From Rhina ancylostomus (taxonomy: Eukaryota), in NCBI GenBank assembly GCA_030265395.1, contig JARFYF010000001.1, forward strand, positions 20,631,662-20,695,661: a DNA stretch of 64,000 bases, written 5' to 3'. Under the pieces are notes generated by a model, which did no database searches, had not been told where the DNA came from, and was given only the letters and a program-made list of their open reading frames with translations. Below are positions 55,135 through 64,000 of the stretch, piece by piece (position 1 is the first letter of the stretch; every line of letters starts with the position of its first letter). A program made the translations under genes and the position numbers.

Positions 55135-56590
55135 AGATTTACTTTATTCCTAATACCACCAGTACATGTCTTTCACTACATTCGTTGCATCATCAATTGG
55201 TATTAGTATTAGACACAGAGACTTAGCATTGACTGCACCGAGCTTCAGTGCATCCCTCAGCATGTACTCCTGCATCCTGGAATGTGCCAGTCTGCAGCAT
55301 TCCCTTACAGACATCTCACTGTGCTGGCAGACCAACAAGTTTCAGGCAGACCAAAGGGCTTCTTTCACTAAGTTGATGACCTTCCAGCAGCACTTGATGT
55401 CTGTCTTGGTGTGTGTCCCTAGGAACAGCCCGTAGATCAGAGAGTCCTCTGTTACTCAGCTGCTGGAGATGAACCAGGACACAAACTCTTGCATCCATCT
55501 CCACACCTTTTTTGCGAATCCACAGTCTGCAAAGAGATGGGTGATCATCTCTTCCACACCGCAGCCATTCCAAGGTTAGCATGTATTGGGGATGATGTGT
55601 TGTCTGTACAGGAAGAATCTGATTGTCAGGGCCCCTTTCACCACCAGCCAAGCAAGGTCTTGATGTTTGTTGGTGAGATTTGGTGATGAGGTGTTTTTCC
55701 AGATAGTTTGGACAGTCTGCTCAGGGAACCACCCCACCATATCCATAGTGTCCCTGTCCCACAATGTCTGCAGGACATTCTGCACTGACCACTGCCTGAT
55801 GGATGTGGTCAAAGGTGTTTACTTGGAAGTACTCTTCCACAGGGGACAGTTAGTGTGGCGACATTCAGATGACTGGAATGTTGCACAGTAATGGGGCCAG
55901 GCCTGTCTTCCACAGCACCAGGGATAGGTAAAACCTTAGCACGTAGTGACACTTGGTGCCCACGTACCTGGGGTCCACACACCGACTGATACAGCCACAC
56001 ACAAAGCCGGTCATCAGGATGGGGGCAACTTTGGGTACACTTTTGCCCCCATTCTCTGGGGACTTGTGCAACAAGACCCATCAGAGTCACTCTATCTTGG
56101 TCCCACAGATAAACTGGAAGACATCCTGGATGATTACCGTGGCAGAGGAGTGGGGAACAGGCCACACCTGAGCCAAGTACAGTAGCCCTGAGAGAGTATC
56201 GCACCTGATAACCAAGTTCTTCCCAGTTATTGAAACAGTGCACTGTTTCCACAGACCCAGTTTCTGTTTTATCTTCCCAATCTGCTCTAGCCAGTTCTTG
56301 GTACACACCTCAGCCCCTCCAAACCAGATCCTCAGCACCTTCAGGTAATCGGACTTGACGGTGAAGGGACCATTGGACTGGTCAGGGCAATCACCAAACA
56401 GCATGGCCTCACTCTTTCTGCATTTGACTATGGCCCCTGATGCCAACTCAAACTGGTCACAGATGTTGACCAATCTGTGAACTGACCATGGATCCAAGCA
56501 GGAGACAGCGACATTGTCCATGTTCAGGGAGGTTTTGACTTGGGTACCTCTACTCCCTGGCAACGTCACCCCTCTTATGCTCTTGTCCTT
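55135..56590 (-). mobile_element. Tx1/L1-clade LINE, 5'-truncated ORF2 pseudogene
   Basis: Motifs SLNMDNV (decayed YxDD), FELASGA, YLKVLRIWFG, SITGKNLVIR, AWLVVKGALTIR and a C-terminal H-x4-C zinc-knuckle remnant; AATAAA at the 3' end near 55145. Confidence 0.88.
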
Positions 56591-57571
56591 CCACCACCTC
56601 TATAAGGAGAAGATTGGGACTGAGGTTAAAGTTTAAGAATTTCAGAGCAGAACCTTAGGCAACATACAAGAGGGCCAGCACTTTTAAAGTGGAGATTAGA
56701 TGGCTTTTATTTGTCCTGTTTAGCAATCTATAGCACCTCATTAACATATTTAAATCAGTTTTCCGTTCTGCTGCTGAGAGGTTTAAAGTAGCCTCAGTTG
56801 GTCAAATAGCCAGGTCTTGAGAAACTTGACTGTAAAATGCAGATGGAAGAATTTTCCTGCAGAATTTTGGTGCCTTATTGAACTCTCTAAGTGAGCCAGG
56901 CCAAACAAACCTGACAATCATAGCTACTCACTGCATAAGTATCCAATCCATCATCCTAAAACTTCCCACCTTTATCACCTTCTCTCCTGCTTGCCATTCT
57001 CCAGTCATTCCTATCCCTGCCCCCATCATCCCCCAAGTTTTGCCTCTTTTGCAATTGCCATGGTTCAAGTACTACACCGTTCCTCATTCCATAAATTACC
57101 ATTGCAATTCCGGTACAGTTCTTTGATCTCAGTTTTTCTTCCTCCCAATTATTGATTTCTCCACCATTCAACTAACTCTTTCACCCTTTCAATTGTTGTG
57201 CTCCTATTTCACCCATTCCTTCAGACAACCTACCATTTCACACTCATTCTTGGGAATCTCAGTACCTGGAGACTACCCTCAAGCCTTACCTTCCCTGTTC
57301 TGCAGCCAGACAGCATTTGGCTGGATCCCGGAAACAAAATGGAATAAAAAATTAAAATGAGGAGCTGAAGGATCTACCTGTCCCTCTACCTGTCTCCTTC
57401 CAACAGCCTCCATTTATTGTACACCCTGCTCCCTCTCCACTTCCTCTAGTTGTCAGTGACATCATTTATTACTTGACCATCCCACCTGCCAGTCTCTTAC
57501 AGATGTTTGTTTTCATTTTACTTTTAAAAAAGTTGTTTCTCTATGTGTACCGTCTGAAAGCTCTGAACTTA

Positions 57572-58700
57572 TGTCAAGACTTTAATTTCTATCTGGCATA
57601 AGCATCTATGAGTACATCCACTATAGGAAGATTATACTGTATCAACCTACCCTTCAAGGACTAGTTTACTTCATTACTTTAATCTCTACGGAAAGGTCCA
57701 GCTGTCAATAATCACTATTTCGAGCATTGGGTCCCTCTTCCCAACCAAGGAGAAGATACTTCCAGTTAACAAAGCAGTGTCACAATGTTGATCGAGAGCA
57801 AACTCACAGAGAACCCAAATGCAGCACACCAATACAAGACTGGAGTCAGGATNNNNNNNNNNNNNNNNNNNNNNNNNNNNNNNNNNNNNNNNNNNNNNNN
57901 NNNNNNNNNNNNNNNNNNNNNNNNNNNNNNNNNNNNNNNNNNNNNNNNNNNNTTCTCTATTCCTTTGTGAAGATCCAGTTCATGTTGGGATTCCTCTTCT
58001 GATCTCTGAGGCAAGATTCCTTCCAGTTGTTGCCTGTGTTTGTCCTGAGGAAGTACCCTGACTCCAGTCTTGTATCGATATGCTGCATTTGGGTTCGCTG
58101 TGGGTTTGCTCTCGATCAACATTGTGACAAGCAGTTTAAACACAGTTTATTTTAAGTGAGACACATTTAATTCTAATAAGTAATTCTTAAGAACATCTTG
58201 TAACTTACAAAGGATTTCCAAACACAAGTACAATTCTTACAAGCTAAAAAGTCACACCAACAAGTTGCAGATGAACAAGTGGTCCATCACAAAAACCAAA
58301 GGCTGAGGAATGAATTTTTGGTCTTCTTTCTGTAACCCTTTCTCTCTGTCATTTTTTCCAACCCTGACTGCTTTCCAACATTTGTACTGATTTTTCACTG
58401 AGTTGACATTTTCAACCACATTTTCAGGCCAGGCGACTGGAGCATTTAATTAAGTAAATGTGGATCCCATTGTTCTCTTGTTTAAGTTAAGAGGCTGAGC
58501 GGGGAATATTGGTTAGAAGTTTAACTTAGTAAACAGCAAACATCTTGAGCCTTGGGCAATTTCTGCTGTTTTTGCTAATGGGATCTTAGCTTAATGAGCA
58601 ACCACGTCCTGACCTTCGGACAGGTAATGCTGCTGGGCTAAAAAGATGAGGTTATCAATAATTCCTTTTTGTGGCCTGGAAAGTGAATGTGCATCACACA
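57572..58700 (-). mobile_element. Candidate 3' LTR of the endogenous foamy-like virus
   Basis: Minus strand begins TGTG directly after purine-rich AGCAGTAGGGG; CCAAT at 58512-58508; AATAAA at 58151-58146; ends AAATTAAAGTCTTGACA at 57572. No second LTR in the window to confirm. Confidence 0.4.
57778..58129. mobile_element. TIR element (TGT...ACA ends, 73-bp TIRs, 5-bp TSD)
   Basis: 57778-57850 is an imperfect reverse complement of 58057-58129. AGCAG direct repeat at 57773-57777 and 58130-58134. Internal N gap. Confidence 0.85.
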
Positions 58701-59312
58701 CCCCTACTGCTGACTGAAGTTTTCTAGTCCAGCTAGTCCTTCCAGAAACTATTCAAGGTCAGACTCCTGCCAAGATTCCTCCTGGGAGCAGACTATCATT
58801 CCACCAACTGTTCCACTGGTACCAGAGGAGATTTCCTTAATTGGATGCTCAATGACTCATTGAATATTTCCCAATATAAGGGTTTCTGTGTGATCTCTTT
58901 GTAAGAGAATTCTCAGCTTCATATATTTCTGAGCTTTCAGAGGATGTTTTACCACCAATCATTTTATAAACATGTGACAACAATGCACCAATATTCATGT
59001 TATAAATCCATTTTTAGTTCATCTTTAAAATTTTTCTTCTTCATAATCAGCTCTCGCCATTATCTTGATGCAAGTTTGGATCACTGTCTTTGATATATTT
59101 GTTAATCTCATCAGCTAGTAGTGTCTTTTATCAAGCTGAAGATGGTTCATTCCTTTCCACAAGAGTGTCTGGGTTCCTTTGGATGCTGTGCATGATGTTT
59201 ATTTAGATTTTCTGAAAATGAGTCTTATAGGCATACTACTGATTTTTGTTTTCTTAGATTGTATATTGCTATCTTCTTTTGCCTATGGATTAGTAATCTT
59301 ATGTTTTATGTT

Positions 59313-59644: not shown

Positions 59645-62258
59645 TTAGACTCATCAGTTACATGATTCACAGTATAAGTGTAAGGTAAAAACATTTATAG
59701 AGGCAGGTTACATTTACATGTGTACTAAGGAAGGGTACAGTACTCCTGTTAAGGATTCTGTCTGTACTTTCACTTCTGGGTGACCAGAATAAGGTGTTGG
59801 AATTTATGGGTTGGTTATGTCCCTCCCATGGGAATGAATACCCAAAGGTGTACTGTGGCTTGGCATTCTGATGACAACCATACAATATGCAGTTTCTTCC
59901 CATTTGGATGATTCTGTACTCTGGATGTAAATATGCAGGTCTCTCTCTTTTACCTTGTTAGAATTGGGCCTGATGGAGAAAAAGTGATATATCTTCCCAA
60001 CTTTCGTGTTTTTCCAGAAAACTTTAACTGAACCAGGGCTGTTCCTTCAGGCCATGGGATTTTGTCAACCAGATATATTGATTGTTCTTGTAACATTAAA
60101 TATAACACAAATGGCAGTGTCAGTAGGCCTAGGGTCCTACCTGTTGCATTGTAGGAGTACCATATATGCAATAAATGCCTATACCCAAATGGTAATTAAG
60201 CAACAAAATGCATCCAGATAATTCTACTTTATGACAATATATGACAGGCAGGACAATAGTGTAGAGGTTAGCGTAATGCTGTTATGGCGCCAGTGACTCA
60301 GGTTCAATTCCAGCTGCTGCCTGTAAGGAGTTTGTATGTTCTTCCTGTGACTACGTGGGTTTCCTCTGGGTGCTCCAGTTTCCTCCCACATTCCAAAGAC
60401 GTACGGGTTAGGAGCTGTGGGCATACTATGTTGGCGCCGGAAGCATAGCAACACTTGCGGGCTGCCCCTAGAACATTCTATGATGCATTTCACCGTGTAT
60501 TTCGATGTACATGTGACTAATAAAGAAATCTTATCTCATAATACTTTGTAGGCCCCGAAAGCCCCAGAGGTTACATCACCATTTCTGAAGAAGTCACAAC
60601 AAAATACGTAAAAAATGTTATCAGGAGTATAGGATTCCCCAGGGGTTGCCATTTTTTCCCCTCCTGGTAAGTCTTTTCCCATAGTAAAACATAGCACACA
60701 AGATATAGTGTTATAATGGTTTGAACATAAAAGTAAATGGTTAAACCATGATAGCATAATGCCATATTAGCAGTTAGCAACATATTAACATAGTATATAA
60801 ATTCTTAAAAAGCATATTATGAAGTTAACCATGTTAGAAAATAAAAATGTAATATCCANNNNNNNNNNNNNNNNNNNNNNNNNNNNNNNNNNNNNNNNNN
60901 NNNNNNNNNNNNNNNNNNNNNNNNNNNNNNNNNNNNNNNNNNNNNNNNNNNNNNNNNNNNNNNNNNNTGAGGCAAGAAATGTGGATAGCCATATGCAACA
61001 TTAGTGATCAGGACCAGAAAACTGAGAGGAGCAATGATAATGTGGTGAGGGTGGTCCCTGTTCCTCACTCTTCCAGGGTTGAGGCTGAATCTGAGGAACA
61101 GGTAAAGTGCAAGGATGAGGCAGTGTATATCGAAGCAGACAGATGAGAGATAATCCACGGTGCCACAGGTGGGCCATAGACTCAGTGGAGTCGGAGTGGA
61201 CCTGGTATACAAAAAGCGGAAGTCAGGAAAGCCTCAGTTCTTCCAGGCTTCAGCGTTCAACAGAAGGAGCACTTCTGCTGCAGTGCATCCTTCCGCCTTA
61301 TCTTCCTGTGCAAAAGCTGGATCAAGGGCTTCGCCGAACCATTTAGAATATAAACCAGTAGTATAGAAAATTGTCATGTTACTGTTAACATTGGATAAGG
61401 AAGTGGAATAGAGGCCATAGTTGGAGAAATGAAAATGTCTAAAGCCTTTGTAATAAGTATGTTTGCCATAAAGGGGAAGTGCAATACGATATCAAACTAA
61501 CATGAAAGAATCGTCATTAAAAATGACAATGGTCTAGTCCAATAGTGTTAATGTCATGTCACCATGATTAGGACCATTCAACAACACAGCAAGGATCTAT
61601 GTCAAGGAATTCTTCTATTAGTTTACCTTCAACATCTGAGCTGGAATCTTTCAGTTTTGTCAAGATATCATTAATTACTCTCACAAGTGATTCTTTCCTT
61701 TCTATGTTCATTTCTTCTGCAATGCAGTCAGAGTGAATATTTAAGTGGACGGGAACAACACTTTGCCAGAGGCAAGGATTATGAGTTCCAGCATATTGGT
61801 CCACATATGACCAAGGGGTATGAACTATTTGGTGACATTTAATTGGAATTATCATTGCTCACAGATCTCGAGGATCTAATATTTTATGAGTCATTGTTTA
61901 AGGGTATCTGAGCCAGATGAGACAATCTCTGTGGTAAATACTTCTTCATCTGCTAAAGAGCAAATCTAAGTAAAGCAGCACTGAATAATATTGAAATATG
62001 AGACATAAATATTATAGCAAGAGCAACATTTCTTTCTGGAATTTGAGTGTTTCTTACTCCAAAATCAACAATCCTTTTTAGTTGTACTACTTCTGGGTAA
62101 TGAATCTATGAGGTCTGCTTCAAGTGAAAAGGAATTTTTATGTTTTGTTTTAGATTGAAGCATGTGCCCTATCTGTTCAATACATCTCACCTATCGTCCA
62201 TTGAGATGTAGGGATTCTACGGTGCATGTATAGCTTTAATATCAGGATTCCAACACAT
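59645..62258 (-). pseudogene. env: Foamy-virus-like env (leader peptide and SU), disrupted
   Basis: ATG at 62258, just after the pol stop. Hydrophobic NVALAIIFMSHISILFSAALLRF at ~62030-61962. RSSR/SV furin site at 61877-61866 (PFV RIAR/SL). HLNIHSDCIAEEMNI...LVRVINDIL (PFV LMINSENIANNANL). TIFYTTGLYSKWF at ~61375-61337 (PFV VLFCSDQLYSKWY). Weaker match RNCILY...YTFGY near 59900-59840. Confidence 0.75.
60245..60536 (+). mobile_element. V-SINE inserted in env
   Basis: tRNA-like head with B box ggttcaattcc, V core and tail aataaagaaatcttatct; same family as 4357-4660. Confidence 0.9.
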
Positions 62259-62269
62259 TCTGGGGGTAT

Positions 62270-64000
62270 TCACTCTGCTGGGGCGGGATTAGTGTTATCA
62301 ATGGAGACAGATCTACTTACAGTTTTGTTTGCCTTCCCTGTTTCAATTACCAGTCTTATCATTGATAAACTGGATAATGAGCAAGGAGGTTTCCATTTAG
62401 GATGGAAACTGGGGTCACAATTGTTTTTATGAAATTTTTTTTCTTGAACCCATTCACCTTTTTGTGCTATCCAAACTTTCTTATCAGGTTCTTTTGTTTC
62501 TCTTGAGCTCCCATAAACTCTCTCAACTCCTTGAGTGGAGTTTTATCTGGTGTAGGCGAAGGTTGGCCTGATTTAGCAATTAAGGGTGTATTTAGATGGA
62601 CATTGTACATTAAAAAATAAGGTGTAACATTCTTATGTATTCCTATTTTTGCCAATAGCATGTTATTTACAGATAGCTGAACTTCAGGGACAAGTGTAGC
62701 CTATCTTTTACCTCGAGAGTAGACCAGTTTTGCCAGGGCCCTCTTAATCTCCTGATTCCTTCTCTGCATGGTCACACTTGATTGTGGGTGGCATGGAGTG
62801 GTGTACCCCACTTGTATTCCTGCCGATTCACACATGGCCTGAAAGCCTTCAGCAATGAAGGAAGACCCTCAGTCTGCATGTTAGCAGGCAAGATGGCCAG
62901 CATGCGGGACTATTGAGTTCTGAAGTGTGGTGATGGTAGCGGTCCCACTACAAGAAGCTGTGGAGACTAACCACGTATATCCTGTACAAAGATCAACTAC
63001 AACAAGAATATATTTATTTGGTGGTTGCCTTGGGATGCCAGAAATGGGCCTATATAATCAATTTGCCACACGTACATTGATATGTTTGGTTTTATTCATC
63101 TTTTAGGAGGTGGTTTTGTAACTGCTCCTGCATTATTGGCCAGATATTCTTTACAATTTGCAACAAATAGCTTGCAATCAGTCAACATGTAAGGTCACCA
63201 ATATAATAAGGCTAATTTTGCATTAGTGGCTTGTCCGCCACCATGATTGTGTCCAAATCCTTGGTGAGCTTCTTGAATTAATTCTTCCGGCTTATGAGCA
63301 GGAGGTATTTGCTTCTTACCTTTTTTTAGGGACATACCCAAACCTTACCTTCACCATCAGTTTCATACTTGTACTTTAAGATTGGGTTGAGTAGTAGGAG
63401 TATTCTTAGAAAATCATCTTGATTACTCTTTATTTGTTGCTTAGTTACTACCATAACCCTGACCTCCCTTACCATAGTAAGGTCCATCCTGACAGCTTGC
63501 TTGGCTTGTTCATCAGCAAATTTATTACCATAGCTGTGTAGATGGTCTGCAGTATGTCCTGGTGTGTATAACACCTGTATTAATGGATGAGTCAATAATA
63601 ATTCATAGATCTTTTTCCACGTGGACAAGTGTGGAAGTAGATTTCCTCTATGTGTTTTTCATCTGGTAGTCTACCAGATGGGGAGATCTCTTTCTACTGC
63701 ATTCCTGACATAGTTAGAGTCAGTGCAGATCAGGACTGGTTCAGTTGTATTTACNNNNNNNNNNNNNNNNNNNNNNNNNNNNNNNNNNNNNNNNNNNNNN
63801 NNNNNNNNNNNNNCTTGCAACTCCTGAGGTTCAAATTCTGTTTCAGATAAAACTTTTCTTTTATAATCCCTGCTCCTGCTTGTAACCTGGTTGATTATTT
63901 CTATGGACTTTCATTGCTGACCCATCGCAGTACCTTATTTCAGAGTAGTGTTTTAAAGGATGTTATGCCACATTAGGCCATGGAGGAGATTGTTCTGCAT
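62270..64000 (-). pseudogene. pol: Foamy-virus-like pol: RNase H and integrase, disrupted, continuing beyond the window
   Basis: RNase H motifs HPLKHYSEIRYCDGSAMK, PVLICTDSNYV, HLSTWKKIYE and PGH...GNKFADEQA. Integrase motifs AHQGFGHNHGG...CKEC, WQIDYIGP, YILVVVDLCTGYTWL, HAD*GSSF, TPCHPQSS, EIKRALAKL, VQEK, HPKWKPP and SVSIDN; stop at 62272-62270. Order and spacing follow recalled PFV Pol. Confidence 0.93.

Follow-up and report, generated by a model that had tools for sequence, protein, structure and literature searches.

A putative foamy-type env remnant behind a broken foamy-like pol in the genome of Rhina ancylostomus

Does the DNA that follows a broken, foamy-like pol in the genome of Rhina ancylostomus retain part of a foamy-type envelope gene? 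The locus lies on the minus strand of a 64,000-nucleotide stretch of contig JARFYF010000001.1 (assembly GCA_030265395.1), which was analysed as a whole and is called the window; all positions are numbered within it. An earlier note on this DNA had described an Env with a start codon at 62258, an internal hydrophobic helix, the furin-type site RSSR/SV and the motif LYSKWF. All four are present at those places, but they do not belong to one open reading frame, which is interrupted by stops and two frame changes. From the comparisons presented here, the stretch from 62258 to 61335 is very probably the 5' third of a foamy-type env in a dead endogenous provirus of a deep-branching lineage. The env evidence comes from one copy only, and it is the two matches to the surface subunit (SU), together with the foamy-like pol, that support this assignment and not the leader. 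The features are collected in Table 1.

Table 1. Positions of the pol, env and adjoining features in the window
Feature	Positions	Strand	Remarks
pol RNase H, C-terminal part	63494..63754	-	Stop-broken; PF00075 E 7e-8; tblastn of 14/14 foamy Pol, 33-40% identity
pol integrase zinc-binding domain	63036..63326	-	Separate frame; PF17921 E 1.5e-7
pol integrase catalytic core	62551..63012	-	Separate frame, has stops; PF00665 E 3.8e-8
pol integrase C-terminal SH3-like domain	62270..62485	-	PF18103 E 0.054, 14.1 bits, under the cut-off of 25
Presumed env leader region	61841..62258	-	Seven stops; start codon and first-half frame uncertain; no profile match
Hydrophobic stretch where foamy TM1 would be	61956..62027	-	KD19 2.25 at codon 78
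RSSR/SV (minimal furin-type RxxR), where the LP/SU junction would be expected	61860..61877	-	P1 at codon 131
First frame change (approximate zone)	61820..61860	-	Stop pattern of three frames
Second frame change (approximate zone), with stops	61494..61580	-	Stop pattern of three frames
SU match 1 (residues 171-207 of foamy Env; domain III with HRC helix 186-204)	61640..61744	-	6.5 bits; E 0.51 (2556 tiles)
SU match 2 (residues 293-329 of foamy Env, within the 217-543 receptor-binding domain), ends in LYSKWF	61330..61434	-	8.8 bits, E 0.1 among 2556 tiles
GC-rich segment where env similarity ends	60968..61335		GC 0.27 to 0.55 across 61340; 50% GC vs 35%

The pol remnant upstream of env

The pol remnant (63754-62270, minus strand) is broken, with RNase H, the zinc-binding domain and the integrase core each read in a different frame, and extends past an N gap to the edge of the window. 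Its integrase C-terminal domain is terminated by an S-I-D-N motif and the pol stop codon (62272-62270). The integrase core scored 82-86 bits against prototype foamy integrase compared to 25-31 bits against HIV-1 integrase. When blastp bits were summed over the four pol pieces, foamy-type Pols reached 216-258 while the best other protein reached 140; identity to the exogenous foamy viruses ranged from 24 to 41% by piece. These sequence comparisons support the assignment of a foamy-like pol upstream of env. Beyond a 59-base N gap, a YCDGSA motif at 63816-63998 (minus strand) looks by eye like the start of the RNase H domain; a Pfam search of this segment was without match.

A tree of the integrase was calculated from 34 rows, 33 of them picked from 108 Pol sequences (P0043 was omitted, having no integrase-core hit). 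The window sequence pairs with P0033 (97/90; 39% identity), and the two together form the sister group of ten exogenous foamy viruses and P0032 (100/98). A deep foamy-like lineage is thereby supported, though not its exact place, since the branch of the element is long (1.23), the tree is midpoint-rooted and it has no labelled row for lokiretroviruses, teleost foamy-like viruses or ERV-L; the reverse transcriptase lies outside the window. By its title, a report by Wang, Chen and Cui (J Virol 2023) is said to place a cartilaginous fish endogenous foamy virus at the root of vertebrate foamy viruses, a position that fits the place of the window element in the tree. Its abstract reportedly mentions motifs that the canonical foamy viruses have retained.

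P0033, the nearest Pol, is an intact fused Gag-Pol of 1687 residues with a foamy-like integrase, located on a 10,956-base contig; a match to the A9 protease family of foamy viruses was lacking. P0032 is a canonical foamy Pol. A word-indexed protein search with the integrase piece returned 327 candidates, none of which reached E<=1, and close relatives were not found when IMG/VR was searched by protein.

Reading frame and leader features

In the frame that begins at 62258, stops are found at codons 14, 24, 30, 51, 102, 125 and 140, six of which precede RSSR (codons 128-131, with SV next). A second frame, which holds the sequence matching Env 171-207, is open from 61858 to 61571, and a third, which holds LYSKWF (61353-61336), continues from 61491; both frame changes lie between RSSR and LYSKWF. 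Stops are dense in all three frames of the env region and the library searches are blank, as would be expected if host non-coding DNA lay beside a pol fragment and there were no env. This reading is disfavoured by a base composition that is continuous with pol (A 33-35%, GC 35-40%) and by the collinear profile matches presented below, and it is very improbable.

Five ATGs at 62258-62163 are available for the start of env. The ATG at 62258 is located 47 nt past the integrase S-I-D-N motif, beyond the pol stop and with no overlap with pol, whereas in natural foamy genomes the env ATG is found 31-37 nt past this motif and overlaps pol (12/14, where the motif was found). A second ATG at 62227 (minus strand), in another frame, places Gln-Trp at codons 9-10, and natural foamy leaders have Gln-Trp10. 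While profile support for the 62227 frame is absent, the Gln-Trp hints at a further frame change within the leader. The WxxW Gag-binding motif is absent from the 62258 frame, with one Trp in the leader piece; it is present in 14/14 exogenous Envs and absent from the first 35 residues of 7/7 distant natural proteins.

The best 19-residue Kyte-Doolittle window of the 62258 frame (KD19) has a score of 2.25 and starts at codon 78 (62027). In natural Envs, the helix starts at codons 68-86 with scores of 2.58-3.35, and the helix of the window is weaker than all 14. The RSSR sequence is a minimal furin motif, like the natural RIAR site. Its P1 residue (RSSR/S) is at codon 131 compared to 123-128 in 13 of the 14 natural Envs, which bears out the position near the junction of leader peptide (LP) and SU that had been given to it in the earlier note, and which makes it a candidate cleavage site.

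An alternative reading is that SU is foamy env and the leader features are accidental, such that the true start and frame differ and the helix or RSSR is not the ancestral TM1 or furin site. The leader is without a sequence match in any frame. Against the N-terminal Env profile it scored -2.1 bits (hhalign E 0.3), and on a leader-only profile 495 of the 2556 tiles described below score equally well as the leader piece. The T-rich DNA yields a hydrophobic stretch in two frames (KD19 2.01 in the adjoining frame at the place of the helix), RxxR by itself is frequent (507/11,300 control tiles), five ATGs are possible, and 62258 is off the natural distance from the pol motif. Set against these points, the helix and RxxR share a frame and the natural spacing, with 53 codons from helix start to P1 (53-57 in 13/14 natural Envs). 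The combination of a helix >=2.2 starting at codon 61-92 with RxxR at codons 116-140, ranges that were fixed after the natural values and the locus had been inspected, was found in 3 of 11,300 control tiles off the locus. SU match 1 also lies on the diagonal of the 62258 start. The best leader alignments, though non-significant, place the helix at profile 67-84 and, by hhalign, at 66-97. An accidental leader is thus unlikely, and the named helix and RSSR are probably the true TM1 and cleavage site.

Similarity to the foamy surface subunit

Standard searches of the env pieces were blank. No single-frame piece matched PF03408 or any other Env family in Pfam; as a control, 4/4 natural Envs scored about 1500-1690 bits on PF03408. 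A search of PDB sequences gave chance rows only, where a natural Env recovered five foamy Env entries. PF00523 was not hit by the env pieces in scans that also miss PF03408, and the comparison with lokiretrovirus Env draws on published descriptions. The middle env piece gave 35 candidates in a word-indexed protein search, none at E<=1, and the best ESM Atlas result (0.87, NfeD-like) was at chance level. A low-confidence single-sequence model of one 96-residue piece (pLDDT = 41) presented a helix at match 1; a Foldseek search with this model found no meaningful match. Among the 10 sequencing runs listed for the sequence, one carries most of its words (0.78) and may derive from the source sample, the other nine carry small shares, and none is an RNA run.

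Custom Env profiles were made from 14 sequences of natural foamy genomes, and from 20 sequences when six distant natural Envs were included. A profile search of 1.84 billion representatives returned 14 proteins. Within the window, the profiles were run against 2556 single-frame tiles from all six frames. With the 14-sequence profile, the top-ranking tile was 61741-61640 (E 0.85; profile 172-207) and the second 61410-61327 (E 1.4; profile 301-330); both lie at the env locus. Match 1 starts 173 codons past 62258 at profile position 172, and match 2 starts at 284 codons; the spacing between the two is about 18 residues shorter than in the profile.

Since the breaks between frames had been placed by eye, the two matches were also evaluated by a pair test that is independent of the breaks. 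The collinear pair at the env locus scored 12.8 bits with the 14-sequence profile and 15.4 bits with the 20-sequence profile, compared to 1.2 and 2.0 bits for the next best collinear pair elsewhere in the window. In 25 block-shuffled windows, no pair exceeded 6.8 bits; single hits reached up to 9.8 bits and as a result it is the pair that counts, and neither match alone. When the region was read through with X at the breaks, it scored 9.6 bits on the N-terminal profile from 14 sequences (0/1000 shuffles, 0/3648 same-pattern controls), 3.2 bits on the full-length profile (1/1000 shuffles, 0/3648 controls) and 12.2 bits on the 20-sequence profile (E 3.7e-6 for one comparison; 0/1000, 0/3648). 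A profile of the six distant Envs alone gave no more than 3.2 bits (3/1000 shuffles, 4/3648 controls). Both blocks were selected by hhalign (match 1: E 0.0065, probability 5.8%; match 2: E 0.0066, probability 5.7%), with 15/39 identical residues between match 1 and L005. Wrong frames and reversed pieces scored below zero.

The structure of gorilla foamy Env, in the available text of PMC11468914, places residues 186-204 in the HRC helix of domain III and residues 217-543 in the receptor-binding domain. From the part of PMC9988990 at hand, residues 311-369 belong to the more conserved lower subdomain of the receptor-binding domain, which has a C235-C318 disulfide. Only 293-329 of the receptor-binding domain matches, and there is no clear match to profile 208-292. 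The motif [LIM]YxxW is found at 316-335 in 14/14 natural Envs. LYSKWF, which the earlier note had likened to foamy SU, ends match 2; across the six frames of the window LYxxW turns up six times, so the motif alone is weak evidence. Cys318, invariant in 14/14 natural Envs, is aligned with a Tyr in the window, and the N-M-T sequon of the window (61380) is displaced by two residues from the natural one. The custom profiles support a homology to foamy SU that is weak in absolute terms. A profile or structural match to foamy Env, by which the earlier note had proposed to check its reading, was not obtained from Pfam, PDB or structure searches, but the custom profile scored above all controls.

The blank standard searches would also suit a different viral gene behind pol, whether an accessory ORF or an envelope that is loki-like or of another kind, as is seen in the teleost foamy-like viruses, with both matches arising by chance. 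Teleost foamy-like ERVs are described, in the available text of PMC5210030, with ORFs between pol and env and with Envs that have no detectable foamy homology, and the nearest Pol to the window, P0033, is the fused Gag-Pol in which the foamy A9 protease family was not matched. However, this explanation is made improbable by the collinear pair of matches, which lie at the offsets to be expected and score far above the nulls. The 62258 frame also has no N-terminal stretch resembling a signal peptide (KD12 0.21 in the first 40 codons; 1.68 in another frame), whereas the accessible part of PMC7947760 describes a signal peptide in loki Env.

The contrast that the earlier note had drawn with a lokiretrovirus-type fusion protein has to be stated more narrowly. 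Foamy Env shares the paramyxovirus/pneumovirus F core, as far as the available text of PMC11468914 goes, and loki Env resembles F as well according to the corresponding part of PMC7947760. Since both are related to F, the F core does not separate them and the contrast narrows to the retained leader and the inserted domain. In this form the argument would hold, as the 293-329 match lies within the part that is the receptor-binding domain in foamy Env.

The end of env and the relatives of the element

The GC-rich segment at which the env similarity ends enters a 109-base N gap (60859-60967) 368 bases past about 61335; it has no Pfam hit and no other copy in the window. Profiles of Env 330-570, 570-780 and 780-988 found nothing around the locus, their best rows (E 0.17 or worse) lying elsewhere. 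The fusion (TM) subunit, including the second furin site, the fusion peptide and the second anchor, is without a match near the locus, and 61335 is followed by the foreign-looking segment and the N gap. A hydrophobic stretch at 60858-60690 was considered as the C-terminal anchor of Env; as 148 of 2556 tiles score equally well, this candidate is unsupported and was discarded.

From 60858 to 58700 (minus strand), the DNA is A-rich like pol; stretches that look open occur around 60200-59800 and 59150-58850, and AGTAGGGG/TG stands at 58703. The putative accessory genes of the provirus and the start of a 3' LTR may be located here, with no homology found; none of 28 natural foamy accessory ORFs matches behind env, no tRNA genes were found, and the GGGTG at 58703 is one of 26 in the window, no more than chance would give. 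The 5' half of the provirus lies outside the window. Within this stretch, a SINE-like repeat at about 60250-60540 recurs in other parts of the window as five or more partial copies. The remainder of the window has many gaps and many repeats that resemble SINEs and LINEs, apparently of types that occur in sharks and rays. Long stop-free stretches at 55316-56599 (minus strand) resemble what we take to be the reverse-transcriptase end of a Tx1-type LINE, for which Pfam returned no fitting family. Further, a 73-base inverted repeat (57778-57850 / 58057-58129, 93% complementary) flanks an N gap and may represent a small transposon or have arisen in the assembly.

If the ancestral Env is modeled on the foamy family, it would have had a long, retained leader anchored by the internal helix TM1, and a furin-like protease would have cut it at RSSR, at the LP/SU junction. 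In SU, a receptor-binding domain would have followed the HRC helix as an insertion into an F-like fusion core of class I. The present copy would be incapable of making Env, with the rest of the gene apparently broken by foreign-looking DNA and the assembly gap.

Compared to the Envs of exogenous foamy viruses (Spumaretrovirinae; PF03408; PDB: 8OZH, 8RM0, 8AEZ), the window is alike in its place behind a foamy-like pol, in a candidate internal helix at about 70-80, in RxxR at about 125-130, and in the similarity at 171-207 and 293-329 including LYxxW. It differs in being broken and below Pfam and PDB detection, in the missing WxxW, in the loss of Cys318 and in having no overlap with pol. Deep endogenous Envs have diverged far less than the window pieces and retain a strong match to the family. 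In coelacanth CoeEFV, the pfam03408 match covers 887 of 1016 Env residues (E 1e-69; PMC3386198, available part), and the amphibian foamy-like Envs P0008-P0010 and P0015 (Ascaphus, Bombina) match with E 5e-48 or better. The unannotated NCBI proteins P0008-P0010 and P0013-P0018 (Ascaphus, Bombina, Lissotriton) are foamy Env fragments; those of the newt keep the TM-subunit part only, one of them in four near-copies. Three full-length divergent foamy Envs from assembled sequencing runs, P0005, P0006 and P0007 (961-988 aa, single-member clusters), may represent undescribed foamy viruses or co-opted env genes.

The teleost foamy-like ERVs have a foamy-like pol as in the window, and PpERV-1 has two furin-type sites. 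Their Envs, as described in the available text of PMC5210030, show no detectable foamy homology, and most have a signal peptide, whereas the window pieces match the foamy profile. Lokiretrovirus Env is set apart by its description, which in the accessible part of PMC7947760 includes a signal peptide and one RXKR site and mentions no foamy receptor-binding domain. In cartilaginous and jawless fish, the available texts report that only pol was detected in elephant shark (PMC5512871) and that the catshark and jawless-fish elements have no Env domains (PMC10699275). A literature search turned up no text on a foamy Env from a shark or ray, although one may have been published.

For the question of when the F-like core described in the available text of PMC11468914 acquired the receptor-binding domain, a foamy-type SU remnant from a deep lineage is of relevance. 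The weight of the finding is limited by its source in one broken, truncated copy with weak matches, and the 2023 paper on a cartilaginous fish foamy virus concerns the same group. It is a tentative and rather doubtful suggestion from these sequences, and new only if that paper lacks it, that a foamy lineage branching below the exogenous foamy viruses, probably one of cartilaginous fish, already had an Env with an inserted receptor-binding domain and a retained leader. If true, the insertion of the receptor-binding domain into an F-like core would date near the root of jawed vertebrates, and the unrelated Envs of the teleost foamy-like viruses would be later replacements.
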